A stretch of DNA of 64,000 nucleotides, taken from positions 576,410-640,409 of the forward strand of contig JBMORP010000006.1 in the NCBI GenBank assembly GCA_049322655.1, in the 5' to 3' direction. Position 1 is the first letter of the stretch; each line of letters opens with the position of its first letter. Shown here piece after piece: positions 2,223 through 60,536 of the stretch. The notes under the pieces are model-generated. The model made no database searches. It was not told the DNA's origin and was given only the letters and a program-made list of their open reading frames with translations. The DNA comes from Patescibacteria group bacterium (GTDB lineage: Bacteria > Patescibacteriota > Microgenomatia > UBA1400 > PJMF01). The translations under genes were made by a program, and so were the position numbers.

Positions 2223-2230
2223 TGTATAAT
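2223..2230 (+). promoter_or_regulatory. extended -10 promoter element (TGTATAAT) for pilin paralog 6
   Basis: TGTATAAT lies 32 nt upstream of the ATG at 2262; an AGGAAAAG Shine-Dalgarno sits 6 nt before the ATG. Confidence 0.4.
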
Positions 2231-2261
2231 GCAATTGCCACTAAAAACAGGAAAAGCAGCT

Positions 2262-12632: not shown

Positions 12633-13736
12633 TTAATTGGTTCTAAAAGGCATCACGATATATAAAATATCTCGTTCTTCAGGAAAACTAAACGCTACTG
12701 GTTTCAAACTTTCATTGAGTTGAAAAATAATCTCACCTTCTTTTTGGGTATTTAAGAAATCTAATAAATACATTGCATTAAAAGCCACTTCTTGTTCTTC
12801 ACCAGTAAAGTCGATCTCGATCTCGCCAATATATTCTCCGGCAGCAGGAGAAACCGCTTTAACTATTAATTTATTTGGAGATAAAAATAATTTGACGATG
12901 TTTGAAGCGTCTTTCGAAAATAAATAAGCTCTTTTGACTTGAGTAGCTAACTCTGAAAGATCTAGTTTTATGGTATGAACAAACTCAGCTGGAATAATTT
13001 TTTCATAAGGTGGGTATTCTCCTTCAATTAATCTGACATAAATCTCAATCCCATCAACCACAAATAAGACTTGTTTAAGCTCTTCAGAGACTCTAAAAAC
13101 AACTTTGTCTGACTCTGTTTGGGCTATCATTCTAAATACTTCATTAAGGGCTTTTACAGGGATTAACAATTCTTTCTCAAAACCTAGTTTTTGACTGTGA
13201 GCTTTCATCGTTGCTAATCTATAACCATCTGTGGCAGCAATTTCTAAACCTTGTTCTTTAAAACTAAAAAGCAGTGAAGTTAAAACTGGTCTCGTTAAGT
13301 CTTGAGCTGCAGCAAAAGTAATATATTTATCAATTTTAGCCAATAAATTTTTATCCAAAGAAAAATCTTCACCAGTTACTTCAGGAAATTGAGGATATTC
13401 TTCTGCTGATTGATAGGGGAGAGAACTTTTGCTTTTTTCATAACTAATGACTAAAGATTTATCTTTTTGTTCAAAAATAATTTCTCCTGCTGAAAAAGAA
13501 AAAACCAGATTTTTAAAAATATCACCAGGTATAACACAACTACCTGATTGTTCTATCTGAGCTGGAATAACGTTTTTTATTCCCAGAAACAAATCTGTTG
13601 CTGCCAAAACCAATTGATTATTTTCTGCTTTTAAATAAATAGATGACAAAATTGGTAATTGAGGTTTGCTCGGAATTGCTTTTTGCAAATTGGTTAAAGC
13701 TGTTTTTAGATTTTCTTGTAAAACTCTAATTTTCAT
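12633..13736 (-). CDS. dnaN: DNA polymerase III beta subunit (sliding clamp)
   Basis: MKIRVLQENLKTALTNLQKAIPSKPQLPILSSIYLKAENNQLVLAATD is the typical DnaN N-terminus; ~367 aa; directly downstream of dnaA. Confidence 0.9.
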   Translation of the reverse strand: MKIRVLQENLKTALTNLQKAIPSKPQLPILSSIYLKAENNQLVLAATDLFLGIKNVIPAQIEQSGSCVIPGDIFKNLVFSFSAGEIIFEQKDKSLVISYEKSKSSLPYQSAEEYPQFPEVTGEDFSLDKNLLAKIDKYITFAAAQDLTRPVLTSLLFSFKEQGLEIAATDGYRLATMKAHSQKLGFEKELLIPVKALNEVFRMIAQTESDKVVFRVSEELKQVLFVVDGIEIYVRLIEGEYPPYEKIIPAEFVHTIKLDLSELATQVKRAYLFSKDASNIVKLFLSPNKLIVKAVSPAAGEYIGEIEIDFTGEEQEVAFNAMYLLDFLNTQKEGEIIFQLNESLKPVAFSFPEERDILYIVMPFRTN

Positions 13737-13739
13737 AAA

Positions 13740-14005
13740 AGATCTTTTCTAACTATCTATATAAATATAATTGTTGTAGTAATAATAGAGGCTGTTGATA
13801 AGTGGAAAAAACCTCATAAATTACTCTAGTTAATTGATAAAAAACGATGTGTATTCATCAGTTTTACAATTCTGAAAAACTTTGTGTATTGTGCAGGAAA
13901 ACTCTGTGAAAATCGAGAGCTTTTTCACAAAATTAAAAAGTTATTCAAAGTTTTCCAACACCTTTCCACTTAGTTATCCCCAAAGTTTTCCACAATTGTT
14001 GAAAA
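13740..14005. promoter_or_regulatory. candidate oriC: AT-rich dnaA-dnaN spacer with a DnaA-box cluster
   Basis: Same-orientation 9-mers matching TTATNCACA with at most 1-2 mismatches: TTTTTCACA 13921-13929, TTTTCCAAC 13951-13959, CTTTCCACT 13962-13970, TTATCCCCA 13974-13982, TTTTCCACA 13986-13994. Confidence 0.5.
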
Positions 14006-15496: not shown

Positions 15497-15611
15497 TTTC
15501 TCCTTAATAGGACAGGTTTTGACAATAAAATCTAAGAGGGCAGTTCCGATTTGATTGCTTAGTTATACACCTAGTTTTCCACAATTTGTCAAGTGGAATT
15601 TTAATTAAAAA
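15497..15611. promoter_or_regulatory. dnaA upstream region with DnaA-box-like sites (autoregulatory promoter region; alternative oriC position)
   Basis: TTATACACC (15562-15570), TTTTCCACA (15576-15584) and an inverted AAGTGGAAT (15591-15599). Confidence 0.35.
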
Positions 15612-17681
15612 CTAATTTTTTGGGGGAGAATAGTCATCAATAGTGTAATATCCAGCGTAAGATTGTTTGTTTGCTGCGACTTGTTGCTGAGAAGTTGTCT
15701 GAGTTGAAGGAAGGATTTGTTCTTCAACAGAACTCTCTTCAGCCTCTGTTTCTGAATTAATAGAAACTTGGTTTTCTAGTGGTGATTGTTGTTTATTAGG
15801 AATACCAAATGAAAACTTTGGTTTTTCCTTTGGTTGTTTTTGGGCTTCAAGTTGAGCTATTTTTAATTTTTTTTCTTCTTCTTTTCTCTTTAAGACTTCT
15901 TCTGGATTGGTAGTGATGACTTCATGTTCCTCATCGCTGGCTACCACTCTGAGGGCTACATGGTTTTGCCCAGCAAAAAAGATGCCCTCACCAACATCTG
16001 AAGATACTAATAACTGTCTTTCTCCTTCAGAAAGATAGAAAGTCTCTGCTAAAACTGGGATTGAAGCGGTAGATTGTTTCATTAAAAACTGAATCGAAGC
16101 ATTACTCACAATTGCTTTACCATAATCATTATGAATAAAATCTTCAACGTCTTGAGTGATAGTTGTAATTCCTAAATAATATTTTCTAGCCCGCTTAACC
16201 ATGGAGTGAATAAATGAAGCACTATCTTTATGCTTCATAAAGTACCAAGCTTCATCAATTACCAGGATTCTTCTTTTAAGATCTTTTTTAACTCTTGTCC
16301 AAATAAAATCAAGAATAATGAACATGGCAATTGGTCTAAGCTCTTCTTCCATTTCCTTAACAGAAAAAACAGTAAATGGATTAGTAATATCTAGGTTGGA
16401 TGGTTTATCAAAAATACCTCGAAAAGAACCAGTAATAAATTTTTCTAGTCTAGCCGCAATATCATTTGCTTCATCGTTTTCCATACCAATTAGAGCTTTA
16501 TAAAGATCTTCCATTAACGGTGGTTCATTGGTTTGAGTGACTGGGTCTGGAGTAATTCCTTTGGCCTTATAAGCCGAGATTAACGCCCTATCTAATAAAG
16601 CCTCTTGTTGAGAAGTCATGTTTCCCAGCATTACTTTTAGTAGGCCGTGAAGGGTAAGAATCTTTTGGCCAAGTTCATTTTCACCTTCTTCATACATGGC
16701 TGATAAATCAAATGGATTGATTTTAGTTTTTGAACCAAAAGTAAAGTTAATATATTCTCCGCCTACTTTTTTAGCCAACTCTTCATATTCATGTTCTGGA
16801 TCAAGAACAATTACTTCAGCATCAAACATTAATTGACGAATAACTTCTAATTTAACCGTGTAAGATTTACCAGCACCTGATTTAGCAAAAATCACCATAT
16901 TGGCATTTTCCATTTTAAATCTGTCAAAAATAACTAAAGAATCATTGTGCTCATTAATGCCATAGAGGATACCTGTTTCCATGGTAAGCTCTGAAGAAGT
17001 AAAAGGAAAAGTTGTCGCCAATGAAGTTGTATCCATATTGCGGGTAACCATTAACTTGTCTCTTCCCATTGGCAAGGTTGTTTTGAAGCCCTCATCCATT
17101 TGTAAAGTAGCCTTTTTAGAGACAATTAGTAATGAACCCAACATTGATTGAATGTTTTTGGTTACTTTATTTAAGCTGTCCAAACTGGGGGAAGTAAGGG
17201 TTACATAAAGCCCAAATTGAAAAAATCTTTCAGCGCCAGCTGCTAGTTGTTCTCTAATGGTTCTGGCATCGCCCAACTTAATTTCAGTATTAATATTACT
17301 AATTTTTCCTGACCTAATATCTGATTGGATTTCAGCCTCCATTTCAGTAATTTTTCTTTTCAAGTTATCTAAGACCTCAGCAGAGTCAACAGGATAAATA
17401 AACATCGAGATATTGGCTTGATTTGGATAATTAATCAAAGGAGATAACCAGTTGGCTGGAACTGTTCTTGGATAGCCAGCCACAAATAATGTTCTGGTGT
17501 AAGTCGAGTTGATTTGTTGATAAGTAAAATCAACTTCAATTGCTTCTGGCGCAATGATATCTTGAATTGTTACCAAACCTTGAGAAAACTCTTTGATTTT
17601 CTCCATTTGTTTTTGTTCAGGAGTTATTTCTGGCTGATTATCTGTTTTTTTTGGGTTTAAAAATGGTAACTGAAAGGGCAT
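15612..17681 (-). CDS. VirB4/TrbE-like type IV secretion ATPase
   Basis: Walker A FAKSGAGKSYTV, Walker B LVIDEAWYFM, and overall VirB4/CagE-like organisation (689 aa). Confidence 0.7.
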   Translation of the reverse strand: MPFQLPFLNPKKTDNQPEITPEQKQMEKIKEFSQGLVTIQDIIAPEAIEVDFTYQQINSTYTRTLFVAGYPRTVPANWLSPLINYPNQANISMFIYPVDSAEVLDNLKRKITEMEAEIQSDIRSGKISNINTEIKLGDARTIREQLAAGAERFFQFGLYVTLTSPSLDSLNKVTKNIQSMLGSLLIVSKKATLQMDEGFKTTLPMGRDKLMVTRNMDTTSLATTFPFTSSELTMETGILYGINEHNDSLVIFDRFKMENANMVIFAKSGAGKSYTVKLEVIRQLMFDAEVIVLDPEHEYEELAKKVGGEYINFTFGSKTKINPFDLSAMYEEGENELGQKILTLHGLLKVMLGNMTSQQEALLDRALISAYKAKGITPDPVTQTNEPPLMEDLYKALIGMENDEANDIAARLEKFITGSFRGIFDKPSNLDITNPFTVFSVKEMEEELRPIAMFIILDFIWTRVKKDLKRRILVIDEAWYFMKHKDSASFIHSMVKRARKYYLGITTITQDVEDFIHNDYGKAIVSNASIQFLMKQSTASIPVLAETFYLSEGERQLLVSSDVGEGIFFAGQNHVALRVVASDEEHEVITTNPEEVLKRKEEEKKLKIAQLEAQKQPKEKPKFSFGIPNKQQSPLENQVSINSETEAEESSVEEQILPSTQTTSQQQVAANKQSYAGYYTIDDYSPPKN

Positions 17682-17715
17682 TGGTTTTTATTTTAACACT
17701 CCATAACTATTTCTA

Positions 17716-18801
17716 TTAAAGCTCAGCGACCGGAGGCATGGTTTTCTCTACCTTTGGTTGTTGCGCTATTTTTAATTCTGGAACAATTGGCTGTGTTTTT
17801 TCAACTCCTGGTTGAGCTGGCTGAGGCTTAGTTATTGGAACAGAAGATGGGACTTCAGCTTGAAAAACAGTTTGTTGTGTTGGCAGTTGTGGTTTAGGTA
17901 ATTCTTTTTCTGGAATTGGTTGTTGAGCTGAAGTTTGTTCAATGTTCACATTGTTGGCTGGAGGAGTATTCTGTGGCATATCAGGAATTTCTTTTGGAAC
18001 AACAGCAGATTCAGTTATTTCGGCAATTCCAGCTGGAGGAATATCAGTCAAAGAATTAACTTGTTCTTGTGAAGAATTATTATCTGTTGTGAGCGCTTTG
18101 AGAGAATCGGCGTCTGGAATTGTTTTGGCCTGCACAACCATGGTGGTGTAGTCTTTACTATCAGTAATTTGTTGGCCCTCATAAGCTTCAGGATTATAGC
18201 TATTATAGAAAATCTCAATAATTTCTTGGGTATCTAATTGTCTAGCATAAAGCCCAATTCTATTAAATTGGGCAATTAAATGATCTCTTCTTGGTTCTAA
18301 AACACCCAAGCCTTTTTCGATAACGGCAGCCTTTTGTTCTCTAGTTAAAACAGGCTCATTTTTACCGGGAAGAACGGTTTGTGGAGTAATCATACCAACT
18401 TCAGCGGGTGCTGCTGGCACTACCACATAAAATTTCTTATCTAAAACATTTCTTTCTTTAATTAGTTGACCGACAAATTGTTGATAGCGACCAATTAAGT
18501 CTTTTTTTTCTAAAGTAGAAGCTTTGGCTGCTTGTTCATCTAATAACCTCAAATAGGCAGTCGCATCTTTTGTTTTTGAACTAATAATAATTTGAATCGG
18601 AAAATTTAATGAATTGAGTAAAGCAGCATAAGCATAAATAATGGCATCTTGTTCTTGCTCGGCTAGCAAACCAAAGTTCATTGCACTGATTACCATCACC
18701 AAAGATATTGTGCCATCTTTTAAAACGACAACATTATTAGTGATATCAAAAATATCAAGGAACTTTTGGGTTGTAGAAGAAATTTCACCAGCATCAGACA
18801 T
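17716..18801 (-). CDS. hypothetical protein with Pro/Gln-rich C-terminal half (T4SS-cluster associated)
   Basis: ORF co-directional with and upstream of the VirB4-like gene; the C-terminal third is low-complexity P/Q/T-rich. Confidence 0.4.
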   Translation of the reverse strand: MSDAGEISSTTQKFLDIFDITNNVVVLKDGTISLVMVISAMNFGLLAEQEQDAIIYAYAALLNSLNFPIQIIISSKTKDATAYLRLLDEQAAKASTLEKKDLIGRYQQFVGQLIKERNVLDKKFYVVVPAAPAEVGMITPQTVLPGKNEPVLTREQKAAVIEKGLGVLEPRRDHLIAQFNRIGLYARQLDTQEIIEIFYNSYNPEAYEGQQITDSKDYTTMVVQAKTIPDADSLKALTTDNNSSQEQVNSLTDIPPAGIAEITESAVVPKEIPDMPQNTPPANNVNIEQTSAQQPIPEKELPKPQLPTQQTVFQAEVPSSVPITKPQPAQPGVEKTQPIVPELKIAQQPKVEKTMPPVAEL

Positions 18802-18852
18802 ACTTGTTTACTATGGTACTAGAAATCAAGGCTAAATCGCAATGAGAAAACT

Positions 18853-19896
18853 CTAACTTGAACGAATTTCTAGCGGGGGAACCAGATTTCCACTTAAAGC
18901 AATAGTTTGTTCAGGAAAAGTCAAGCCAACTTTTTTTACTCCCACAACATAAGTGCCGTTGGGTAGTGCAGTACTTAAAGAAAATTGACCCAACAAGTTT
19001 GTTTTTAAGGCATTAATTACTTGTCCTTGGTTATTTTTTATTTCCACTACAGCCTGATCAACCAGTTTGTTATCTGGAGTTAAGACCATGCCAACTAAAG
19101 CATTGGGTTTATTGGGTTGTTTGGGAAAAGGAAGAGTGTTGTTAGTGACGACTTCTTTGGTTGGCAGTGAAAAAGATTGTGTTGGCAAATCAAACTTCGT
19201 TGATTCAACAGCAGGGGTATCTAGCTGTGGAGCTTGACTTAATGATTCATTTTGCGCAATGATTTCTTGCTTTTGGTTTTTTTGTTGTTGCTGAAAAATC
19301 ACGTTTTCTGAGCTAGCTACAGGAATAGTTTTTTGTTTGGCAAGATTTCTTGGTTTAGTAGTTAGTTTCGGTTTTATTTTTTGTGGTTTAGCGATCACTT
19401 CGTCGACTTTGACATCATTGTATTGAGCCAAAATATTAGCCATTCTTTGTTGGTCATCATCGTCTAATTGGTTTTTTTCAGTGTTAGAGCTAACAGAGTT
19501 TAAGTATTCTCTAATTCTCTGTCTTCTAGCTGGGGTTAAGTCAATTTCAAATTCTTCCTCTTCTTTGGTTTTTTCTCTTTTAATATGTGTAAAGGCAAAC
19601 GGAACTTCAGTCTCTTTTTTCCAATAAAACTTAGTAGGACTATACAATCTTCTAAAAAAAGTAGTGATCCAATGATCTAGGGGTCTTTCTTCAATGGGTA
19701 CAAAAGCCACCATTGCCCCAAAGCCTGCCGATAAAATAATTAATGGCCACTTAATAAAAGCAATTAAATTGGTATTGTAAATAATTACGCCAATTACTAC
19801 CCCAACAGCAATCTCTGCAAATTGTTTCAGGGTCATGTTTCCAACAATGTGGAATTTGTAACCAACGACGTCCTGTGGAATTGGATGTTCTCGCAT
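18853..19896 (-). CDS. membrane protein with PrgI/VirB3-like N-terminal TM hairpin and a C-terminal beta-rich domain
   Basis: N-terminal ~100 aa carry two TM helices (IAVGVVIGVIIY...LIILSAGFGAMVAFVPI), as in Gram-positive T4SS PrgI-like proteins. The call rests on position and topology only. Confidence 0.35.
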   Translation of the reverse strand: MREHPIPQDVVGYKFHIVGNMTLKQFAEIAVGVVIGVIIYNTNLIAFIKWPLIILSAGFGAMVAFVPIEERPLDHWITTFFRRLYSPTKFYWKKETEVPFAFTHIKREKTKEEEEFEIDLTPARRQRIREYLNSVSSNTEKNQLDDDDQQRMANILAQYNDVKVDEVIAKPQKIKPKLTTKPRNLAKQKTIPVASSENVIFQQQQKNQKQEIIAQNESLSQAPQLDTPAVESTKFDLPTQSFSLPTKEVVTNNTLPFPKQPNKPNALVGMVLTPDNKLVDQAVVEIKNNQGQVINALKTNLLGQFSLSTALPNGTYVVGVKKVGLTFPEQTIALSGNLVPPLEIRSS

Positions 19897-19936
19897 GCGA
19901 CTCTATCTTAGCGTGTCTATAAAATCGTTGCTAGGG

Positions 19937-20917
19937 TTACTCTGCTACTTTGACAGCTGGAGCAATTATTTCTGCCTGGATTTTTTGATTATCTTGGTTA
20001 ATTATTTCTCCTGAAAAATGATAAAAAGGATAAGCTAAATTGTTTTTTAAATCGGCTCGGTATTCCAATTGAACAGCGGTTAGATCTCCAGCCACAATCT
20101 CTTCTAAACTGAACACGCCGGTATTTGGCTCATAGGCAGAAATAATAGAGGCATATTGTTTGTTATTAATGTTTTCCAAAACTTCTCCCAAAGAAAGGAT
20201 TTTAAATTGTTGTTCAGTAGGCAGCGGGTAGAAAAAATTAGGTTGAAAAACTATTTTTTGAACTTGATATTCACTATTAACCAGAATCGTTAAAGGAAAT
20301 TTTTCTCTATGTTCTATTAACAGCGGAACACCATCAACACTATAAGTAAAAGGAATCTCCAAAGCAGCAATCTGCCCAGTTTTGACTTCTTCCATTTCTT
20401 GTAAACCAGAAAACTTTTTAATTTTATCTAACTGAATAGTAAATGGGATTTGATCAAAAACTTCGTTAACATAGTTTTGAGCAACAGTGATGGCCCTATC
20501 TCTGCTTGTCAAGACAACATCTTTGGGTAAATAGTTAGAGTAAAAAAGGTATTCATCATCTTGATTATTATAAGAAAGAGTATAATTTTCTCCTTTCCAC
20601 AAACCATCAATATTCTCAACTGGTTTTAAGTTATGAGTTTCAATAAATCGTTTTTTTAGATATTCAACATTAGTGTTGCTGGGTTGAATCTTTACTAGAG
20701 GAAGATTGTTTTTGAGTGTGGGCAAATCGCCAGAAAACTTAATATTATTGAAGTGAGATTTATTACCATCGCTATTGACTTTGATAAATTCATTTTCTGG
20801 GATGACAACATTTTTTGGTGTAATAAACCTAAAAACCACAGTTATAAAGATTCCGACACAACTCACAATGAACAACATGACATACCATTTTTTATTTTCA
20901 AATAAGTTTTTATTCAT
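19937..20917 (-). CDS. bitopic membrane protein (possible VirB8-like T4SS component)
   Basis: Single N-terminal TM (WYVMLFIVSCVGIFITVVFRFI) followed by a ~290-aa extracytoplasmic domain. The assignment is by topology and position only. Confidence 0.3.
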   Translation of the reverse strand: MNKNLFENKKWYVMLFIVSCVGIFITVVFRFITPKNVVIPENEFIKVNSDGNKSHFNNIKFSGDLPTLKNNLPLVKIQPSNTNVEYLKKRFIETHNLKPVENIDGLWKGENYTLSYNNQDDEYLFYSNYLPKDVVLTSRDRAITVAQNYVNEVFDQIPFTIQLDKIKKFSGLQEMEEVKTGQIAALEIPFTYSVDGVPLLIEHREKFPLTILVNSEYQVQKIVFQPNFFYPLPTEQQFKILSLGEVLENINNKQYASIISAYEPNTGVFSLEEIVAGDLTAVQLEYRADLKNNLAYPFYHFSGEIINQDNQKIQAEIIAPAVKVAE

Positions 20918-23900
20918 AACAAGTCCTCACTGGATCGTTAACCTTAACACTAGCTCCATCAGGCATTAAAGCGGGAAGTGTCCCAGAATTTGGGGCACTA
21001 CCTCTGAGCTCAAAGTGAAGATGCGAGCCAGAAGAGTTGCCTGTGTTTCCCATTTGACCAAGTACTTCTCCAGCCACAACATCTTTACAAGACTGAATAT
21101 TGCTAGATCTAAAGTGCCCAAAAACAAAGGTACCAACTTCAGTTTCAGATAAAACAACATGAATACCATAACCAGGATCTAGATTTCCTGGACAGGCTTT
21201 ACCAGAAAAAGGCGCAAAAATAGTAGTGCCTTCACTGTTAGCAATATCAAAAGCATCAACTCTGCCATGAGAATAACTACCGCCTGGTAGCTGGGTGATG
21301 GTTCCACTCGCTGGCCAACAGCCAGCCCCCTGAGAATAATCACCAATATAAATAACCTCTCCAGTAATGGCATTATCAGTGCCTTCAACTCCTGTTTGAG
21401 AATCTTTGGCAAAGACCTTGAGGTCAAAAGTATTCAGTACAGAAGAATGATTGTAGTTGCTATCGAGAGATTCTGAGTAAGTTAAAACAACCGACTCTCC
21501 AGGTTCAATAATCATTTCTTCATATAGTTCTGGGAAATCAGCTAGTTTTTTGATTCGTTCTGGGACGGTAGGTGGTTTTTTCCCTTCATGTTCTTCCCAA
21601 GCTTTTTCACTATGATTAACTTTCATGGTGTCAGTAGCATCAAGGACTTGAACAGTGTAATTACCTTTTGGGGTAATGGTGATAGTGTATTCAACCTTAA
21701 TCGGAAAGGCTGGATTTTCACATTTATTTTCTGGACAGCCAGCAATAAAGGCTCTTTTTTCAATAGTGACATATTCTGATTCTTTACCTGGAATAGAACC
21801 AGAAACAGTACTTAAAGGATCAACAATTGGGAAGTCAGCAACTAAAGCACTAGAAATTGTAGATTGTACTAACAGTCCAGTGCCAGCAACCGTGGCAATT
21901 GTACCGAGAACTGCTTGACCACCAATATGAACGATTGATTGACCAATAAAACTGGTTGGCTGTAGGGTGGTTGCCTCAGCAAGACCCTGAGTTGTTGTTT
22001 GGGCTGCTGCCACAGTATTGCCAGTAGCCCCATTTTGAAACGAATAATAATTCTGGCCTTTTTTTCCAGTAAAGATCTCTTCTAAAAGTTTACCAATTCC
22101 GAAACCTCCTCCAGCTCCAATTCCAACGCCAATTGCAGCCCCAACCGGCCCACCAATAAAGAAACCGGCAATTCCGCCCCCAATAGCCCCCAAAACTGTT
22201 GGGATTAAAGTTAATAATGATTGAGCAGCATTAATTAAAAAGTAAGCTAGAGATCCCAAACCCAATCCACCCAACGCCATAAGAGTTTGTCGACCTCTTT
22301 TGGTGGTAGCTAGTTTAGTTAAAAAACCCAGTGCTGGGTGAATAGCTGTTGTTGCTGTAGCTGCAGCTTTACTAAGGCCAGCTTCAGCTGCTTTGTCGGC
22401 AGCCTTGCTAGCTGCTTTTTTGCTAAGTCGAGATCTTAGTCCTTTGACCCCTCTTTTTAATCTACCACTAAGCCCTCTGCTCCTTCTAGTAAATTGATTG
22501 ACATTAGCTAGCGGACTTTGTAAAACACCATTGTCTGGAATATAACTAGAATTAAAGTTGTTTATCTCTTCGGTGTTATAAAAGGCCGCTCCGCCAAGTA
22601 GGGGAGCCATGTCATGGAGACCAATTTCTTTGGGATAAAAATCTGGGGTTTCAGCAATATTTTGGATTGTTTTACTACCAGCTTCGCCATAACCAAGCAC
22701 CACAAGAATTTCTTTTTTGGTTTCAGTGTCTTTAGCAGCCCAAACTTGTTTTAAGAAAACCTCTCTTTTTTCAGCATTGGTAACACCTTTTTTATCATTA
22801 AAAAACTCGATTACTTCCTGAGGATTTTTAACAGGAGCCTCTTTACTACCAACGAGGATTTGTTTAGTTGGAGTAGCGATGGCTCTTTCAAAAACTTGAT
22901 CTGCTTCTTTTTTATTTAAAACTTGCTTGTTTTCATCCAGCAAAGCTAAAGCTTCTTGGGTGGCGAATTTAGCTTCGTTGTGGAGTAAAAGTTGACCAGT
23001 TCTTTTGCCAATAATTGAACGTCGAGCAATCCAAATTTCACCAATTGTTGACAAAAACTCTTGATTAAAAGGAATTTCTTCACCAAAAATTAGTTTAAAT
23101 CTGCCTTCATCAACATATTGAAGTAAATCTAGTGGTAGCCCTTGCAAAATCCAAGAATCAACTACATTAACTACATTTTTTTCAGCTAGAGTTAGTTTAT
23201 CTGCCTGAACCCCAATTCTTTGTAGTTCACCTTGCAGTAGCTTGGTAGCTTCTTTGGCTAAATAGTCATCTTTATCTTCAACCAGTTCCTCTTTTTTTAG
23301 TTCCCCAAAAACTTGTTCTAGAGCTGGATGTTGAGCTAGGTTTGTCACCAGCTCAGAAACGGCTGGCCCAGTGCCAGCCTCAGCTTCTTGAAGAGCAGTC
23401 TCGATTTTTTCTCTAAGTTCTGGATTTTTATTGTTGCTTAAGGTTTCGGTTAGATGAGTAGAAATAAGGGCAGTAGTTCTAAAGTCATTTTGCACCAACC
23501 AGACATATTCTCGAATTAAAGTGAGTCTAGTCTCAGGATTAACCAAATCATCTAAGCGACCATTTCCCAAGGTAGTTAAAAAGAAGCCCAAAGTTTTATC
23601 TGATAGGACTCTTTGTAGATCTTTGGAGTTGGCAAGAGTTCCTGGTGGTAAACCATGTTGTTGTTCCAATTGAGCTAAGGCAATTCCAGTAAAATTGGCG
23701 GCTTGTTCTCTTAGTTCTTTGCTAAAAAGAATGTTTTTAGTAACGAGTGGATCATTTTGTTCTTCTTGTAATTTGTCAGGAGGTTGGGTTTGAACTTCCT
23801 CTTCACTAGTAGTTCCACCAGAATCACTATCAGTTGCTGCAGTTTGTGGGGCCCCTGCTGAAAGAGGTTTATTTTCTTCTACGACTTGTTCTTCTGGTTT

Positions 23901-24479
23901 TGCTTCTTCTTCGCTTTCTGGCTCTGCTTGAGCGTTGAGATCTTTATCTTCTTTGATTTTAATAAGATCTAAGAGTAGTTTGGCAGTACTACCAATGTAG
24001 TCTGTCAACAAAACATTTAACTCATGATCATCTTTACCAGTAATCTCTAATTGATTGTAGGCGTGTTTTTCACAGGAAATGATAATTACAAATAAAATTT
24101 GTAAGGTATCTTTATCTAGTTCCAATTTGCCAGCATCAACTTCTTTTTGATACCAGTTATTAATGTCACCCAGGAAGTTATTTGCTATATCTGTAAACAA
24201 AAAAGCTAAATCACTTTTATAAAGGAAAAAATTCAATTGATCAGCCAAATGATCTCTAGAAATGATGTAGCTTCTATCTTTAGTGGTTAGTTTGAGGCTA
24301 CTAGTATTAACTTCTTTGAATAAACTTTGAAAAGAAAAATTTAATTCTGGTTCACTAGCAATATTAGACCTAGTTAAAAGTTCTAAGAAACCTTTGATTG
24401 TGTCCAAATTAACATCATCCCTTAATCTCTTTAAGAAATACCTCTCTTGGCCAGTTAATTTAGGCTTTGCATCGGACAT
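20910..24479 (-). CDS. giant multi-domain protein (1189 aa): N-terminal acidic domain, Gly-rich TM region, C-terminal M23 (LytM) peptidase domain; putative T4SS cell-wall hydrolase
   Basis: C-terminus DVVAGEVLGQMGNTGNSSGSHLHFELR is the M23 HxH catalytic motif. The central segment LGGLGLGSLAYFL...GGGFGIGK is a Gly-rich membrane region. Confidence 0.6.
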   Translation of the reverse strand: MSDAKPKLTGQERYFLKRLRDDVNLDTIKGFLELLTRSNIASEPELNFSFQSLFKEVNTSSLKLTTKDRSYIISRDHLADQLNFFLYKSDLAFLFTDIANNFLGDINNWYQKEVDAGKLELDKDTLQILFVIIISCEKHAYNQLEITGKDDHELNVLLTDYIGSTAKLLLDLIKIKEDKDLNAQAEPESEEEAKPEEQVVEENKPLSAGAPQTAATDSDSGGTTSEEEVQTQPPDKLQEEQNDPLVTKNILFSKELREQAANFTGIALAQLEQQHGLPPGTLANSKDLQRVLSDKTLGFFLTTLGNGRLDDLVNPETRLTLIREYVWLVQNDFRTTALISTHLTETLSNNKNPELREKIETALQEAEAGTGPAVSELVTNLAQHPALEQVFGELKKEELVEDKDDYLAKEATKLLQGELQRIGVQADKLTLAEKNVVNVVDSWILQGLPLDLLQYVDEGRFKLIFGEEIPFNQEFLSTIGEIWIARRSIIGKRTGQLLLHNEAKFATQEALALLDENKQVLNKKEADQVFERAIATPTKQILVGSKEAPVKNPQEVIEFFNDKKGVTNAEKREVFLKQVWAAKDTETKKEILVVLGYGEAGSKTIQNIAETPDFYPKEIGLHDMAPLLGGAAFYNTEEINNFNSSYIPDNGVLQSPLANVNQFTRRSRGLSGRLKRGVKGLRSRLSKKAASKAADKAAEAGLSKAAATATTAIHPALGFLTKLATTKRGRQTLMALGGLGLGSLAYFLINAAQSLLTLIPTVLGAIGGGIAGFFIGGPVGAAIGVGIGAGGGFGIGKLLEEIFTGKKGQNYYSFQNGATGNTVAAAQTTTQGLAEATTLQPTSFIGQSIVHIGGQAVLGTIATVAGTGLLVQSTISSALVADFPIVDPLSTVSGSIPGKESEYVTIEKRAFIAGCPENKCENPAFPIKVEYTITITPKGNYTVQVLDATDTMKVNHSEKAWEEHEGKKPPTVPERIKKLADFPELYEEMIIEPGESVVLTYSESLDSNYNHSSVLNTFDLKVFAKDSQTGVEGTDNAITGEVIYIGDYSQGAGCWPASGTITQLPGGSYSHGRVDAFDIANSEGTTIFAPFSGKACPGNLDPGYGIHVVLSETEVGTFVFGHFRSSNIQSCKDVVAGEVLGQMGNTGNSSGSHLHFELRGSAPNSGTLPALMPDGASVKVNDPVRTCYE

Positions 24480-24538
24480 CTACTTTTTATTATATCCTTT
24501 GCCAGATAGAAACGCACGTCTGTCTTCATCAATGAAAT

Positions 24539-26254
24539 CTAGATTAAATTGGCCACAAATGAGCCCAAGCTTTCTGAATCAATTATTGGTTTGTGAGTTT
24601 TATTTTTGTTAATAGCGGACTTAAAGATGGGGCTACTGTCCAAAGAAGTAACTTTTGGTAGGTTGTAGTTCATTTCACAGTTTAGGCACCAATCACATTC
24701 TCCGACCCAAGTATTATTAGCGCCACATTTCAGACAAGAGCCAATTTTCCATTCTTTTGCCCGTTGGTTACCCACAAACTTAGCCAAATCTACTCTAGAT
24801 AGCGAAGCTGGGGTTAGTCCTTGTAATTGTAAGTTGGCCAGTTGCTGAACACTGCTAATTGGACTTAAAGCAACACATTCCAACAACGAAGTATCAAAGG
24901 CTTTGACGGCAGAAGAAAAACCAATCCCTTTGAGAGATAGGGCAAAATCATTTTCGGTTAAGTTACCGAATTTTTTGAAGTGATCAAATAAAGCCGTTCT
25001 TTTTTGGGCTGAAATTTTTTTAGTATCAAGAATGCCGGCAAAAACCACTCTTTTCATAAAATTACTTAACTTAGTGACCGTATTGGGCGAGAGAGAAGGA
25101 TCTCTTTTAACTTCAGTGGTAACGACATCGATTAATAATTGAGAATATTGTTCCAAAGCTGGTTCCATTTGTTTGATTTTCATCCGAGTGATTTTTTGCC
25201 TAAGCCTCTGGAAAAACTTTTGTTTGGGAAATAGTTCCAGAAAAGTTTCATCAGCCGGAGTGACTTGAAACTTGGTGGGTAGGGAAATTAATTTTTCCAT
25301 GACTAACTGTTCTTTTTCAGCAAAAGGCAGCTCAGTAAAATTTTGAGGTAAGTGAGCACCAATAATGTTGAAAAGTTTTTGGTGATCTTCCCAATTTTTG
25401 GGAGCCAAATGTTGATCATGAAGCAAGATAAATCGGTTTAGGGTTGGAATGAAAACTGGTTGGGCAATGACAATGACACTCAAATTGCCTTCATGGACCT
25501 CAGATTGAGGCATAACATAAAGATATTTAGGCCCAAGGGTGATTTCTCCAGCTAATTTTTCTAGTTTCATTTTTTCTTTAACTTCTGGTTGGATGAAAGT
25601 AAAAGCTTGTTGAGGTGAAAGGGTTACCCAACCAGTATTTTCAAGTTTTTCTCTAGTGATATTTGCATCAGGCTGAATAACTTTATCTTCAGTTTCATAA
25701 GTTTGCTTAGCTAGTAAAGACAACATGGCATGAGGGCTTAGAGCAAAAAGCTGGTTCAAGCTTGTCAGTAAGTTTTCAACTTGGCTTTTTTCTAGTTGAT
25801 AACGGTTTTTTTCGGCTTGATTAATAGCTAAAGATTCAACCGCATCTTGGCAAATTTGTAGTAAATCTGGTCTGAGTAGGTAAATATCATCATGGAGAGC
25901 CAACCCGTTGTCTTTTGAGGTGATTTCATAAGCCAAATGAGTAACTGGTAGTTTTTGGGTTTCTGTCAGAATCGAGCGAAAAAAGTAGACCAGCAAAGCT
26001 TTTTGTTTTTCTGGGTCTTGAATAGGCAAAACTTCTTTGAGGATAAAATTTAAAATAACGATGAGTTTATCTTTTTCTGGATTAGGAATTTCTTTAAGTG
26101 GGTGATGATCAGGTTGGTGAGTGGTTTCTTCTCTTGGTGCTGCTTTTTGGTCAATTAAGTTAGGAATAAAATCAGCCAGCGAAAAAGGAAAAACTCCTTT
26201 TGAGTCTTGAGTCGGTGAGAGTGATTGATGAGTAAAAGTTTGTTCTGGTAACAC
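24539..26254 (-). CDS. hypothetical protein with C-terminal Cys-rich zinc-ribbon-like motif
   Basis: 571-aa ORF ending CLKCGANNTWVGECDWCLNCEM (CxxC ... CxxC); first gene of the co-directional cluster that runs into dnaA. Confidence 0.4.
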   Translation of the reverse strand: MLPEQTFTHQSLSPTQDSKGVFPFSLADFIPNLIDQKAAPREETTHQPDHHPLKEIPNPEKDKLIVILNFILKEVLPIQDPEKQKALLVYFFRSILTETQKLPVTHLAYEITSKDNGLALHDDIYLLRPDLLQICQDAVESLAINQAEKNRYQLEKSQVENLLTSLNQLFALSPHAMLSLLAKQTYETEDKVIQPDANITREKLENTGWVTLSPQQAFTFIQPEVKEKMKLEKLAGEITLGPKYLYVMPQSEVHEGNLSVIVIAQPVFIPTLNRFILLHDQHLAPKNWEDHQKLFNIIGAHLPQNFTELPFAEKEQLVMEKLISLPTKFQVTPADETFLELFPKQKFFQRLRQKITRMKIKQMEPALEQYSQLLIDVVTTEVKRDPSLSPNTVTKLSNFMKRVVFAGILDTKKISAQKRTALFDHFKKFGNLTENDFALSLKGIGFSSAVKAFDTSLLECVALSPISSVQQLANLQLQGLTPASLSRVDLAKFVGNQRAKEWKIGSCLKCGANNTWVGECDWCLNCEMNYNLPKVTSLDSSPIFKSAINKNKTHKPIIDSESLGSFVANLI

Positions 26255-26566
26255 AAAAGCTCCTCTGTTAGAGGAGCATCGGGAGGCAAAGTTGTTTATT
26301 CATGCCCGATGCTCGTCGGAAGAAATAATAAATTTCTTCTTCATTCCAGACTTGGAATGGTTTACTCCGACCGGACTTGTCTCAAGCGAGCATCACCGTT
26401 GCGGCACAGTCTCCGAATCTGACGGAACTTCCGAGTAACAAGGCTTGTTATAGCATAGTTGGGGGTGAAATGTCTATCTTTTCTTGGTGGTTTGTAGTAA
26501 AAACTATGAGGCTGATTATTGGAGGATTTTTTTTAGAGAAAATGGTAGAATACATGGTAGTTAGTT

Positions 26567-29500
26567 ATGTCTGAAAAATATCAAAATTTAGAGCAGGCTT
26601 TACAAGCCAAAGTCAAAACAGAAAAAGGCAGAGAATTGCTAGTTTCTAAGATTATTGATATTGATCAAATTGCCTTAGCTGTTGAAGAAAAAGCTGGTGC
26701 TAAAAACTTGCGAGTAGTACTTGCAAATATAGAGAAAAATATTTTCTCTGGTGGAGAAGTTTCTGACAAAATTAAAGAACCCAATAAAGCTAAACTTAGA
26801 CAAGGAATTGCTAAGGCTTTAGAAACAGTTTTTAACTCCTTAGAGTTTTTTGAAGAGCAAGTCATCGAAGGTAGTTTAATGGGTGAATTTCCAGAAGGTG
26901 TGAAGGGTAAAAATCCCAGTGCTGAAGATGTGTCCAATGCTGTTGAAGTGATTAGAAATTTAATTATTTCCTATATTGAAGCTATCAAAGAATTTTATCA
27001 ACCAGGAGAATTAACCGCTGAACAACAGCAACTTTTTGGTGTGGCTGAAGAAAATGCTGGAGCAAAAGATCAAGATCCTAAAGACCTGGTTGAGTTTTCT
27101 GGTGAGGTCGCTGAAATAGATAAAAGACTTGTAGAAGAAGATGACTTAAACGGTGACTTTTTCGATCCTAGAGAAGATTATAAAGAAACTGAGATGTCTG
27201 CAATAAAGTTTGTCAGAGATAAAGTTGCTTATTTTGATGTAATTTATGATTTAAGTGCACAGGGGGATCCAGAAAAAAGACTTAAAATAGTAAGTTTAAT
27301 TGATAATTATATAAAACCGGCGAGAGAATTGATTCTAAGGTTAGAAAGAAGAGTTGAAATCATTGAGGAGAAAGAACTAAAAGATTGGAAAGCTTCTATT
27401 CCACAATTTTCAACACTGGAAACCCAACTAAAAGGTTTTGAAGAATCTACTAATGGAATTTCTTTAGATGGTAGTGTCGATGTATCAACAAGCCTATCAA
27501 CATTAAGTAAGACAGCTGAGAAATTATCTGAAGCCATAGAATCTTCTATTTATGCAGCAAAAGGGGAGCTTTTTAGAGGACTTTTTGCTAGATATCATGA
27601 GGTTTTGGGACTTTTACAGGTAGCTCAATACCGATTTTTATTAAAAGATTTGTTGAAAAATATAGCTGATATTGAAGCAATTAGTACTCAAGATTTAAAA
27701 AAGAAAAAAAGCAAAGAAAAATTAGGTTTGTTGGAAAAATTAGATGAAAGTAGACATACAAATGAAGGGGATCTCCTTGGATATTCATTTTTTGCAACAC
27801 AAATATCAGATCTGTATGGAGTTCAGCAAGCCGCTCAAGAAAGAGCTCAAAAAGTTGCAGATGAGATAAGAACAAGATTTGATCGGGCTCACCAAAGACT
27901 AGATGAAGAAAAAGTGACTAGTGTTGTTTTGGAAAAATTTAGAGGAATGAGTCTTCAATCTTTAATAAAAGATTGGCATACGAAAGATATTGCTCCTGAT
28001 GATGAACCAAGAATTGCTTTAGAAATAGCTTTTGCTGAAAAACTAGATGAAATGGAAGTTGGCTTTATTGAACATGCAACGAACAATGGAGATTCTCCTG
28101 CTGAAGCAAAGCAGAGATATGAAAACTTTAAGAAGATGTATGAACAACTATATGGGTTAGTTTTCTTTGGAATAATGAGGGGTGATGCAATGAATTCTTT
28201 GCAAGGCACAGCTAAGCATGAAGAAATTTTAAAATTTGCCAATACCCCTGGAGCTATGGCTACAAATGTGGAGTTCAACAAAAATCCCTTAGTCGGCTCT
28301 GTGGGAGAAACTTTACATCAAGGTGAAATGTATGGGCCCAATATGGGTATTCTCCAGATGATTACTTTTGCTGCTTTTCAAGAAATGAAGGGCTTAAGGT
28401 CTAAATTTTCTAGAAACCAAGGATATACAGCTGGAATGATTGAAGAACTAATTGATACTGTTTGTAATAGAGAAGATGTTGTGATGTGGAATTCATATGA
28501 ACCAAATGCTACAACGGTTTTAGCAGCAGATCACCCAGAAATTGGTGAGCAAGTAAACATTAAATCAGAACTAGCAAAGTATCCTCCAGAAGTTATTGAG
28601 ATGATTAAAATGTTTGCTAAGTGGAAAATTTCAAGAGATGATCTTGGTTCAAAAGCAGCAATTTGGCATTGGGGAAGAAACAAAGGTGCTTTTAAGAAAA
28701 ATGACGGAGTGAGTGACAAACAGGCAGATGGTTGGCTGGCCGCTCAATGTTATCAAGTTGGTAAAAATGGTAAAAAGCAAGGTCATTTGGCAGCGTTAGG
28801 TTTTGTGACTCCAGAAAAAACTGACTTTATGGCAGCCAATCATGAGAATGATGGCAATATTGAGTTGGGAATAGAAAGAGTTGATCAATATTTATTATAT
28901 AGATTCCCACAATTAAGAGGCGTGATGTATCGAGACGCAGCTCCGGGTGGAAGTAGACTGGAAGGCTTACATAAATATACTCCAGAAAACTGGTGGGAAG
29001 ATTTTCCAGGTCTTGAACACTTCTTTAATAAAACAGACACCGTCTTTACCGGTAATGACTATGTAAAATCAAGAGATGCTGTCTTTAAAATTATTGAAAT
29101 GGCTACAGAATCGGTATATATCGAAGTTCCAAACGACACAGAGGACTTAGAAACATTTTTAAATGCAGTAATAACTTCTTTTGATACCCAAATAGGAATG
29201 GCTTTGGCATATATTGGCAAATTTAATGATCATAGTGAAGGTTATTCTTCAAGCTATCCTATAAATGAACTAAATTATGTTCATGAGCTAATTTTAGCTG
29301 CTATGAAATTCTACTTAATGAACATTTTAGTAAGAATTCCAGTTCATATTAAACTTGAGAAACCAATTCCAGATTTAATTTCTAGAGGAAAAAATATTTT
29401 ACCTATTTTAGAAATAGCTGATATGGATTATCACTCAAATTATAGAATTGCTGTGGAAACACTGGTTGATTTGATATCTAGAAACTCTACTTTGGCAACT

Positions 29501-29818
29501 TTTTACCAAAAAGAGTTAACAGGAATTATCAAAAGAACCCCCCTCTCAGGACGTGATGGATTTAATATTGTTAAAAGGTCAGATGGAGTTACTCCATTTT
29601 TAGACCTTGATTTTAGGGCTGTGTATAGGGATGAAAATGTCTTGGCTGGTAAGTATAGAAAGTGGTTAGTGAAAAAGAAAGATGAAGAACTAGTTGCTTC
29701 TGGTCACCATAAAATGAGATGGCAAGAAAGAGACAAACTTAGATTGGGCAAACCAGAAGCTCCGTATCATTTTAAAACTGGGGCATTTTTATCTGCTGAA
29801 AAAGGGCAACTTCATTAA
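26567..29818 (+). CDS. large acidic hypothetical protein (1083 aa), no TM segments
   Basis: Long uninterrupted ORF with AT-rich codon usage typical of the host genome; no recognizable catalytic motif. Confidence 0.45.
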   Translation: MSEKYQNLEQALQAKVKTEKGRELLVSKIIDIDQIALAVEEKAGAKNLRVVLANIEKNIFSGGEVSDKIKEPNKAKLRQGIAKALETVFNSLEFFEEQVIEGSLMGEFPEGVKGKNPSAEDVSNAVEVIRNLIISYIEAIKEFYQPGELTAEQQQLFGVAEENAGAKDQDPKDLVEFSGEVAEIDKRLVEEDDLNGDFFDPREDYKETEMSAIKFVRDKVAYFDVIYDLSAQGDPEKRLKIVSLIDNYIKPARELILRLERRVEIIEEKELKDWKASIPQFSTLETQLKGFEESTNGISLDGSVDVSTSLSTLSKTAEKLSEAIESSIYAAKGELFRGLFARYHEVLGLLQVAQYRFLLKDLLKNIADIEAISTQDLKKKKSKEKLGLLEKLDESRHTNEGDLLGYSFFATQISDLYGVQQAAQERAQKVADEIRTRFDRAHQRLDEEKVTSVVLEKFRGMSLQSLIKDWHTKDIAPDDEPRIALEIAFAEKLDEMEVGFIEHATNNGDSPAEAKQRYENFKKMYEQLYGLVFFGIMRGDAMNSLQGTAKHEEILKFANTPGAMATNVEFNKNPLVGSVGETLHQGEMYGPNMGILQMITFAAFQEMKGLRSKFSRNQGYTAGMIEELIDTVCNREDVVMWNSYEPNATTVLAADHPEIGEQVNIKSELAKYPPEVIEMIKMFAKWKISRDDLGSKAAIWHWGRNKGAFKKNDGVSDKQADGWLAAQCYQVGKNGKKQGHLAALGFVTPEKTDFMAANHENDGNIELGIERVDQYLLYRFPQLRGVMYRDAAPGGSRLEGLHKYTPENWWEDFPGLEHFFNKTDTVFTGNDYVKSRDAVFKIIEMATESVYIEVPNDTEDLETFLNAVITSFDTQIGMALAYIGKFNDHSEGYSSSYPINELNYVHELILAAMKFYLMNILVRIPVHIKLEKPIPDLISRGKNILPILEIADMDYHSNYRIAVETLVDLISRNSTLATFYQKELTGIIKRTPLSGRDGFNIVKRSDGVTPFLDLDFRAVYRDENVLAGKYRKWLVKKKDEELVASGHHKMRWQERDKLRLGKPEAPYHFKTGAFLSAEKGQLH

Positions 29819-35236: not shown

Positions 35237-35292
35237 AAGTTTATTATACCTTGAATTAAATGGATGTCCCAAAGCAAAGGTAGTCAAGTTGT

Positions 35293-35345
35293 GGTCAGGT
35301 TGTGGTGAGACACTTACCCACGGGGGAAAGGGGGTGTGGTGTTAT
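35293..35345 (+). repeat. copy 1 of the conserved G-rich intergenic motif (TTGTCAG-N9-TGAGAYRCTYACCCACGGGGKRAAGGGG)
   Basis: GTGGTCAGGTTGTGGTGAGACACTTACCCACGGGGGAAAGGGGGTGTGG. Confidence 0.6.
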
Positions 35346-35352
35346 TGAGTTT

Positions 35353-35775: not shown

Positions 35776-35779
35776 GTTT

Positions 35780-39245: not shown

Positions 39246-39293
39246 TTGTCAGGTTGAAGTGAGACACTTACCCACGGGGGAAGAGGGGAGGGC
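39246..39293 (+). repeat. copy 2 of the conserved G-rich intergenic motif
   Basis: TTGTCAGGTTGAAGTGAGACACTTACCCACGGGGGAAGAGGGGAGGG. Confidence 0.6.
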
Positions 39294-39306
39294 AAAAAAT
39301 TATTTT

Positions 39307-47253: not shown

Positions 47254-47260
47254 TAGATTT

Positions 47261-60520: not shown

Positions 60521-60536
60521 AAAAGAAAAAGGAAAA

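Follow-up and report, generated by a model that had tools for sequence, protein, structure and literature searches.

A run of six genes on the minus strand of a 64-kb stretch of a Patescibacteria group bacterium genome (contig JBMORP010000006.1; hereafter the window, meaning the whole 64,000-nucleotide stretch that was analysed) very likely encodes the core of a chromosomal, vertically inherited and non-conjugative type IV secretion system (T4SS) of Patescibacteria. The genome is of Microgenomatia type, with relatives labelled Pacebacteria and Woesebacteria. Relaxase-less chromosomal T4SSs beside dnaA have already been published (Wang et al. 2023; Quinonero-Coronel et al. 2025), and we add nothing new to their existence or position. 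What we add concerns the Microgenomatia version, in which VirB4 appears to be split, a wall hydrolase of the PrgK type keeps an intact M23 site, a YycH-like protein is its candidate partner, and clusters of DnaA-box-like sequences bracket dnaA. In addition, a predicted cobalamin riboswitch precedes the first gene of the run; an earlier reading of the window, made without database searches (the sequence-only reading), had missed it. The element starts the run in the window as well as in eight related genomes and, if B12 controls the machine, would provide a testable link between a secretion system and dependence on host nutrients.

A T4SS core encoded beside dnaA

All six open reading frames (ORFs) were reproduced where the sequence-only reading had placed them, co-directional on the minus strand (Table 1), and the distance from the virB4 stop to the dnaA start is exactly 115 nt (15497-15611). 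From 5' to 3', the genes are separated by 59, -8, 40, 51 and 34 nt, the negative value being an overlap of the start of the 326-aa gene with the stop of the 1189-aa M23 gene. Domain scans used Pfam, judged by gathering scores, and NCBIfam, judged by curated cutoffs. They and simple sequence analysis recovered each feature that had been ascribed to the run: VirB4, PrgI, an M23 domain, a single transmembrane (TM) segment, a Cys motif and a P/Q tail.

The last gene of the run encodes a 689-aa VirB4 that scores 387 bits against NCBIfam conju_CD1110 (NF045971; cutoff 325) and matches Pfam P-loop_TraG at 5.9e-26. The score above the curated cutoff upholds its identity as VirB4 against a possible reclassification, and its class is MPF_FATA-like, the conjugation type of monoderm bacteria. 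The match covers profile positions 174-734 of 752, and the usual N-terminal ~170 positions are missing. The neighbouring 361-aa protein, in turn, matches positions 104-233 of the VirB4_plasma profile with its residues 11-128 (2.2e-8) and the TrsD family (NF041427) at 1.4e-6, under the curated cutoff. Because it supplies the profile region that VirB4 lacks, VirB4 appears to be effectively split here, as in TrsD/TrsE systems, with its N-terminal part made as a separate TrsD-like protein. The sequence-only reading had called this a P/Q-rich protein; it does end in a P/Q-rich C-terminal tail, but the label can now be refined to a TrsD-like equivalent of the VirB4 N-terminal part.

In staphylococcal plasmids the corresponding genes stand in the order trsC-trsD-trsE, which is the order of the PrgI, TrsD-like and VirB4 genes here. 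The 347-aa PrgI/VirB3-like protein matches Pfam PrgI (1.8e-7; 32 bits, cutoff 27) and has TM segments at residues 21-39 and 45-63. A Q/P-rich linker follows, and then a C-terminal beta-sandwich domain that resembles CarboxypepD_reg (2.9e-6; 28 bits, below the cutoff of 32.3). The protein is about three times the usual length, and the CarboxypepD_reg-like extension is also present in its homologues from two distant loci introduced below (L201 and L202). The L201 homologue of the TrsD-like protein has a weak TraC-like Pfam match.

Relatives were collected by scanning one genome per species with VirB4, which gave 80 loci (L-numbered). The nearest are metagenome-assembled genomes labelled Pacebacteria, Woesebacteria or Microgenomates, with VirB4 proteins 70-86% identical to that of the window. 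By tblastn, the order giant M23 protein, ~330-aa protein, PrgI, TrsD-like protein, VirB4, dnaA, dnaN, yidC and DUF4012 protein recurs in ~50 species-level genomes. In almost every one of the 80 loci the TrsD-like gene directly precedes virB4, and ORFs with an M23 hit occupy the same slot in 35; 30 of these ORFs are full length (828-1613 aa), and a contig end truncates the other five. As the sequence-only reading had thought worth checking, the cluster also adjoins dnaA in relatives: dnaA follows virB4 on the same strand, 9-191 nt away, in 52 of the 80 loci, and most of these 52 continue with dnaN, yidC and the DUF4012 protein. The shortest of these distances probably reflect a dnaA start called too early. 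Because the gene order is fixed beside dnaA across related loci, the locus appears to be vertically inherited at a fixed chromosomal site rather than a recently integrated element.

Signs of mobility are missing from the window, as had been reported. A Pfam scan of non-nested ORFs of at least 100 aa found no relaxase or integrase domain in the 64 kb, no direct repeats of at least 18 nt flank the cluster within the window, and base composition at the cluster shows no anomaly. The proposal of a chromosomal, non-conjugative T4SS agrees with all of these tests (relaxase and integrase, composition, repeats, gene order) and with published descriptions.

A predicted cobalamin riboswitch heads the run

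Upstream of the 571-aa gene, 312 nt of sequence hold a minus-strand match to the Rfam AdoCbl family (26327-26459) that scores 27.8 bits, below the gathering threshold of 50. We nevertheless assign this element as a cobalamin riboswitch, with predicted B12 binding, because homologous copies pass Rfam and align with it by nhmmer. The copies that exceed their gathering scores are those of L009 (AdoCbl, 51.4 against 50), L007 (AdoCbl-II, 40.4 against 36.5) and L042 (Cobalamin, 32.7 against 31.5). A conserved core, GGAA-hairpin-CUGUGCCGCAACGGU ... AAGUCCGGUC, is shared by seven of the 80 loci. An nhmmer profile recovers the element in the window (E 6e-32), in all seven core-bearing loci, and in L201 and L202, two more distant loci reached through homologues of the 571-aa protein at 34-37% identity. 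In the closest relative the leader is strongly conserved while the sequence farther upstream is not. Stems differ by compensatory changes, and the hairpin before the core has changes on both sides in four of its five pairs.

The leader continues with a CCGACGAGCAUCGG hairpin and then a GCUCCUCU-AAC-AGAGGAGC hairpin (26259-26277) that sequesters the AGAGGAG ribosome-binding site, followed by UUUU and the GTG start. As a general form, the expression platform consists of the CCGACGAGCAUCGG hairpin and then GAUGCUCCUCU-loop-AGAGGAG, in which the ribosome-binding site is paired 4-6 nt before the start codon. This terminator-like hairpin is kept in the window, L001, L007, L016, L042 and L053, and L065 has a related terminator-like one; in a comparison of expression platforms, no equivalent was evident in L009. 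Because this last hairpin both sequesters the ribosome-binding site and resembles a terminator, B12 would be expected to shut off at least the 571-aa gene.

What that gene, NCBI locus tag ACOZAK_04680, encodes is a protein with no Pfam or NCBIfam match, distinguished by a C-terminal zinc-ribbon-like motif, C-x2-C-x9-C-x2-C-x2-C. Its 16 homologues are all unnamed and invariably stand in the same gene order. No relationship was detectable between the 571-aa protein and the proteins in the equivalent slot of L009, L016, L042 and L053, or between it and other riboswitch-controlled proteins of 450-500 aa; by eye, some of these riboswitch-controlled or same-slot proteins share a similar C-terminal Cys motif with it. 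Class III ribonucleotide reductases have a C-terminal zinc site and often stand under B12 riboswitches. This identity was considered for the 571-aa protein and ruled out, as the protein has no glycyl-radical motif and no NrdD match.

A scan of metagenomes with the riboswitch core pattern returned 120 contigs. Among the 118 proteins compared from the first gene after the riboswitch, 83 form one cluster of small secreted proteins, and two tested representatives of that cluster are DUF4430 proteins (2.9e-20 and 1.1e-15); the remaining downstream genes encode uncharacterised cytoplasmic proteins. DUF4430 is a domain that we take to be transcobalamin-like and B12-binding. Because the same riboswitch type mostly precedes DUF4430 proteins, a working B12 sensor is plausible. 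We found no literature linking cobalamin riboswitches to Patescibacteria or to their T4SSs.

How far such control would reach beyond the first gene is a matter of competing accounts. The riboswitch and the 571-aa gene could form a separate B12 module, with the T4SS core starting at the M23 gene under its own promoter and B12 having no effect on the T4SS; we regard this as a serious contender, if short of an even chance. Control may act on translation alone and stay local, since the hairpin covers the ribosome-binding site; yet U-runs after the hairpin in the window, L001, L042 and L065 are as in transcription terminators. A perfect TATAAT stands 9 nt before the M23 gene start, but it is isolated, and a consensus scan finds neither a terminator-like nor a full promoter-like site between the 571-aa and M23 genes. 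A separate module also fits with the lack of detectable relationship between the 571-aa family and the same-slot family elsewhere, with the DUF4430 proteins, rather than T4SS genes, that most copies of this riboswitch type control, and with L065, where the riboswitch lies on the opposite strand and faces a divergent 238-aa gene. Against it stands the architecture of the locus. The riboswitch lies directly upstream of a 550-710-aa gene that precedes the giant M23 gene in eight of nine related loci, an order maintained down to 34% protein identity, and the gap from the first gene to the M23 gene is just 3-87 nt where ORFs were called (3 nt in L016, 8 nt in L053). That the T4SS genes downstream follow the riboswitch is accordingly a tentative proposition. 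In the strongest version, a single transcript under the cobalamin riboswitch would span the whole core, 571-aa gene to virB4, and the machine would be made when B12 is scarce and off when it is plentiful; we consider this less likely than not.

A membrane-anchored M23 protein and its YycH-like neighbour

The 1189-aa protein ends in an M23 peptidase domain (Pfam M23 at residues 1076-1160, 6.9e-15, within an M23 region of ~1050-1165). Before it come a helical N-terminal domain of ~700 aa, a basic stretch, a Gly-zipper TM region (~730-880) and a beta-sandwich (~900-1045); no signal peptide was found. An AlphaFold2 (AF2) model has a predicted local distance difference test score (pLDDT) of 58 overall and 70-90 within ordered domains, and its matches to structures in the PDB are confined to the M23 part. 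The N-terminal domain has no Pfam, NCBIfam or PDB fold match. Its relatives number just 10 representatives among 1.84 billion proteins, which suggests that this domain evolves fast.

The peptidase itself is apparently active, judging from its residues. The zinc and catalytic motifs HxxxD (H1071-x3-D1075) and HxH (H1153-L-H1155) are present, and H1071, D1075, D1078, H1122, H1153 and six Cys are invariant in 12 homologues. In four of these 12 the second His of HxH (the H1155 column) is Asp, giving HLD or HLDW for HLH, so the giant M23 proteins of some lineages may have an altered or inactive metal site. The sequence-only reading had remarked that the catalytic motif is almost identical to that of a LysM-M23 protein elsewhere in the window (55163-56287). 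The likeness is real, but it signals no special relationship, because the shared stretch, GxxGxTGxSxGxHLHFE, is a family-wide signature; over 113 aa the domains share 39% identity.

Because a basic stretch precedes the TM region and the Cys residues are conserved, the protein is consistent with an external M23 domain in a membrane-anchored layout of the PrgK type. PrgK of pCF10 has an intracellular N-terminal domain and, beyond a TM helix, hydrolase domains outside the cell, LytM among them (PMC11323569), and it gives direct precedent for the idea, already raised in the sequence-only reading, that the membrane-fused M23 domain is the wall-breaching enzyme. By this analogy, the fusion of TM region and M23 domain would be what T4SS hydrolases of single-membrane bacteria normally look like.

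The gene overlapping the M23 gene encodes a 326-aa protein with one predicted TM segment (residues 14-32). A Foldseek search of its AF2 model (pLDDT 88.5) against the PDB gave two significant hits, both to YycH (9a5d_B, 5.2e-5; 2fgt, 3.0e-4). The resemblance is partial: the global TM-score is just 0.36-0.39 and the domain arrangement differs, sequence similarity to YycH is undetectable, and a profile search against PDB sequences returned chance-level hits only. A VirB8/NTF2-like fold, as in the VirB8/TcpC/PrgL component, had been suggested as an annotation to check. It was excluded by the same search, in which VirB8, TcpC and TraM are absent from the best 50 PDB matches.

It is improbable, in our judgement, that the M23 and YycH-like proteins are general wall-remodelling or division factors merely beside T4SS genes. 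In other bacteria, proteins of the M23 and YycH types do contribute to division and to wall homeostasis, the M23 protein matches the DipM, NlpD and EnvC types best in NCBIfam, and the second M23 protein and a SpoIID protein also lie within the window. But the slot between the first gene and the PrgI gene is conserved in dozens of genomes, and the M23 and YycH-like genes overlap by 8 nt. Moreover, a comparable giant peptidase protein sits inside the essential T4SS cluster of Southlakia (PMC10633639), and PrgK shows that membrane-anchored LytM-domain proteins are standard T4SS components of single-membrane bacteria (PMC11323569).

DnaA-box-like sequences cluster around dnaA

The sequence-only reading described the run as transcribed straight into dnaA. 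Its direction and spacing hold, but transcription into dnaA does not follow, as the 115-nt gap contains a TTGACA and a conserved pair of DnaA boxes. On the minus strand the gap reads TTGACA-AAT-TGTGGAAAA-CTA-GGTGTATAA, with a tandem DnaA-box-like pair, and a scan of its 115 nt found no terminator-like hairpin. The pair of 9-mers, with consensus TGTGGAAAAC-TT-TGTGTATAA (the TGTGGAAAAC-nn-TGTGTATAA type), is present in 46 of the 52 related gaps between virB4 and dnaA. Because of this recurrence, dnaA very likely has its own DnaA-controlled (autoregulated) promoter or an origin element; read-through from the T4SS run is possible. The available text of PMC12102498 holds no mention of a conserved DnaA-box pair between VirB4 and dnaA.

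On the far side of dnaA, the gap before dnaN carries a 29-nt near copy of the box pair and is our candidate origin of replication, oriC (Table 1). Over 37 related loci, DnaA-box-like sequences reach densities of 8.7/kb and 9.1/kb in the gaps flanking dnaA (the second value for dnaA-dnaN) against 0.27/kb elsewhere, an enrichment of ~32-fold around dnaA. Because box clusters flank dnaA on both sides, this pattern suggests a two-part origin that brackets dnaA, with the T4SS run abutting it and pointing toward it. Cumulative GC skew is lowest at 12-14 kb, but its course from 14 to 38 kb is noisy. Because the skew is too noisy, it is only from the box clusters that we infer that the run would be head-on to one fork, if unwinding begins in the AT-rich dnaA-dnaN gap.

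Other genes and features of the window

The T4SS neighbourhood extends beyond the 15612-26254 interval considered by the sequence-only reading, up to ~37006. The pilin arrays noted there are present as eight T4SS_pilin genes in two groups, five of them above the gathering score, one just under (26.3 bits) and two weak or sub-threshold. A 137-nt repeat family spans four of the six pilin genes at 134-2681, and the 408-aa pilin (35780-37006) also weakly matches the Mbov_0395 pilin-like family.

Two further assignments held in part. The proposed VirB6/TrbL-like protein, of 582 aa, is indeed polytopic, with eight TM segments, but its family hits are sub-threshold only (Mbov_0396 TM protein of integrative conjugative elements (ICEs), 4.9e-7; MMCAP2_0566 conjugal transfer protein, 1e-5) and it has no TrbL/VirB6 Pfam match. 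The proposed VirD4/TraD-like ATPase has the expected P-loop TrwB/TraG hits in Pfam, but it scores 55 bits against conju_CD1115, whose curated cutoff is 250, and no TM segments are predicted; it lies 21 kb from the nearest other T4SS gene.

Two large proteins have no Pfam or NCBIfam match. For the 1083-aa gene, which is divergent from the riboswitch, L201 has a gene of similar size in the same slot and orientation, and partial tblastn hits occur in L001 and L005. For the 890-aa Cys-rich protein, L201 likewise has a gene of similar size in its slot; its C-terminal part contains a GFLQIEAS stretch that recalls lytic transglycosylase motifs. No paralogy was found among the large uncharacterised proteins of the window.

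The window carries both kinds of pilus system. Three genes at 59747-61776 have N-terminal methylation motifs, two of them also matching T2SSG (type IV pilus/pseudopilin type), and are separate from the VirB2-like pilins. A 64-nt repeat family (D2; GTCAGGTTG..GAGACACTTACCCACGGGGG...) has three copies (35294-35357, 39248-39311 and 47209-47272), all placed at the 3' ends of minus-strand genes (pilin, VanW and VirD4-like ATPase, respectively), and folding shows no significant structure. Between 51250 and 51750 the G+C content rises to 55%, against ~36% for the genome, and this 500-bp island has ORFs of 134 aa and 109 aa that overlap on opposite strands and match no family. The surrounding 49.5-51.8 kb is poor in genes and without Rfam or tRNA matches, and no RNA family was recognised across 49.4-51.9 kb.

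Table 1. Coordinates of the T4SS run, the predicted riboswitch and its relatives, and other features of the window
Feature	Position	Strand	Basis
571-aa protein gene, first of run	24539-26254	-	ORF list
1189-aa M23 protein gene	20910-24479	-	ORF list
326-aa bitopic protein gene	19937-20917	-	ORF list
347-aa PrgI/VirB3-like gene	18853-19896	-	ORF list
361-aa TrsD-like gene	17716-18801	-	ORF list
689-aa VirB4 gene	15612-17681	-	ORF list
Predicted cobalamin riboswitch	26255-26460 (aptamer ~26293-26460)	-	Rfam, homology and expression platform
dnaA	14006-15496	-	Pfam Bac_DnaA 4.6e-66, Bac_DnaA_C 2.8e-26
dnaN	12633-13736		ORF list and domain scan
Candidate oriC, dnaA-dnaN intergenic	13737-14005	-	DnaA-box-like 9-mers at 13793, 13974, 13986; AT-rich stretch adjoining dnaN
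Six VirB2-like pilin genes	134-541, 547-918, 830-1330, 1333-1674, 1758-2162, 2229-2681	+	Pfam T4SS_pilin PF18895, 6.6e-11 to 5e-3
Two VirB2-like pilin genes	35353-35820, 35780-37006	-	T4SS_pilin 1.2e-7, 7.9e-6
8-TM Gly-rich 582-aa protein, candidate VirB6 analogue	29896-31644	-	TM prediction
VirD4-like P-loop protein	47261-49474	-	TrwB_AAD_bind 4.7e-12, TraG-D_C 3.5e-8
1083-aa protein, divergent from riboswitch	26567-29818	+	No Pfam/NCBIfam match
890-aa Cys-rich protein (28 Cys), N-terminal hydrophobic segment, likely secreted, adjoining pilin genes	32615-35287	-	Sequence features
Related riboswitch copies	L001 1215-1420, L007 497-654, L009 301-465, L016 743-889, L042 674-839
Related riboswitch copies	L053 845-987, L065 2568-2706, L201 9802-9931, L202 2579-2697	L065: -

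Weighing the assignment

Several points weigh against a chromosomal, non-conjugative T4SS as described here. The VirB6 and VirD4 assignments fall below curated cutoffs, and no VirB8-like fold was found. The absence of a relaxase covers 64 kb of a contig of ~652 kb. Model confidence is low in the membrane region of the 1189-aa protein, whose predicted topology, with M23 outside, rests on the basic stretch and the conserved Cys. The window's own riboswitch is sub-threshold (27.8 against 50), its status depending on homology to the copies that pass. Finally, essentiality has been shown only in one Saccharibacterium, Southlakia (PMC10633639), and in no Microgenomatia.

The alternative of a DNA-transferring ICE with relaxase, integrase and attachment sites outside the window is very improbable. 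In its favour, VirB4 best matches conjugative-transposon and ICE families (CD1110, Mbov_0397), membrane and pilin-like proteins of ICEs are matched by other proteins of the window, and one ATPase is VirD4-like. But the same gene order occupies the same chromosomal site, between dnaA and the pilin and SpoIID genes, in ~50 species-level genomes, the 64 kb lack a relaxase, an integrase, flanking repeats and any composition anomaly, and PMC12102498 reports relaxases in only 103 Patescibacteria genomes, near virB4 in only 15 cases.

Proposed mechanism and implications

We propose that VirB4, the TrsD-like protein and PrgI would form a membrane-docked motor, with the 8-TM protein as the channel. The PrgK-like, anchored M23 protein would locally cut peptide cross-links and so let the apparatus and pilus cross the wall, while the YycH-like protein, guiding or restraining it, could be its partner or regulator, the part that PrgL has for PrgK; PrgK is reported to bind the VirB8-like PrgL (PMC11323569). 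The pilins would form a tube to the host cell. When B12 is bound, the riboswitch hairpin would form; the 571-aa gene at least would then be shut down, and the genes downstream of it may be too.

The role of Patescibacteria T4SSs has been called "completely unknown" (PMC11665869). In Southlakia epibionticum, transposon sequencing found the genes SEML1_0006-0019 essential for growth on the host (Wang et al. 2023; PMC10633639), and a 2026 preprint describes tubular structures, maybe T4SS pili, at the patescibacterial host contact. If the T4SS genes do follow the riboswitch, the system would be tied to scavenging from the host, either of B12 or of deoxynucleotides that a B12-dependent ribonucleotide reductase cannot supply, and B12 would offer a simple chemical on/off handle for a T4SS.

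Comparison with known systems

The locus most resembles the T4SSs of the Patescibacteria clade. According to Quinonero-Coronel et al. 2025 (PMC12102498), most Patescibacteria have a distinct MPF_FATA-related T4SS in which TrsD is the commonest VirB4 partner. PrgI-type VirB3 homologues are common in it, and so are arrays of VirB2-like pilins, which Microgenomatia and Saccharimonadia have in abundance. Homologues of the coupling protein are mostly encoded at a distance from virB4, relaxases are hardly ever found, and the genes that most often neighbour virB4 in Paceibacteria and Microgenomatia include dnaA and dnaN. The window shares these traits: its VirB4, of MPF_FATA type, is accompanied by PrgI and has a TrsD-like protein as its neighbour, its VirB2-like pilin genes form arrays, a homologue of the coupling protein lies distant from virB4, no relaxase was found, and the chromosomal site adjoins dnaA and dnaN. 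No mention of a YycH-like partner or of a riboswitch at the head of the run was found in the papers searched, and "YycH" does not occur in the Wang et al. 2023 supplement.

Southlakia likewise encodes, next to VirB4, a giant protein that ends in a wall peptidase; the supplement of Wang et al. 2023 lists a 1113-aa protein with a C-terminal fold of metallopeptidase type (PMC10633639). The arrangement differs, however. In Southlakia the peptidase and a lysozyme/CHAP protein are downstream of VirB4, whereas the M23 gene of the window is upstream, and the six-gene run contains no lysozyme or CHAP protein.

Compared with the conjugative T4SSs of monoderm bacteria, namely pCF10 (PrgH-L), pGO1/pSK41 (TrsC-D-E), the Clostridioides difficile conjugative transposon (CD1110/CD1115) and the Mycoplasma ICE (Mbov_0395-0397), the window has homologous VirB4, PrgI/TrsC and TrsD components, and its polytopic membrane protein and pilin-like protein recall those of the Mycoplasma trio. 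Unlike these systems, it lacks a relaxase, oriT partner genes and a PrgB-type adhesin, has multiple VirB2-like pilins, and is fixed in the chromosome beside the putative origin. Its hydrolase is similar to pCF10 PrgK by layout, as a membrane-anchored wall hydrolase with a predicted intracellular N-terminal domain, although that domain is ~700 aa in the window against ~250 aa in PrgK. In PrgK, moreover, LytM is degenerate and the muramidase domain does the work, whereas the hydrolase of the window is M23 only, with its active-site residues intact.

The 326-aa protein resembles YycH and YycI (WalH and WalI, regulators of the WalK kinase in Firmicutes) in combining an N-terminal TM helix with a multi-domain alpha/beta external part. 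It differs in having no WalK-type kinase near its gene and in its pairing, within a T4SS cluster, with an M23 hydrolase.

The predicted riboswitch resembles other cobalamin riboswitches (Rfam clan CL00101: RF00174, RF01482 and RF01689) in its conserved core, regulatory hairpin and final, terminator-like hairpin that buries the ribosome-binding site. Its target sets it apart. In the window and eight related genomes it would be an uncharacterised cytoplasmic protein at the head of a T4SS gene run, rather than a gene for transport, for biosynthesis or for a B12-independent isozyme.

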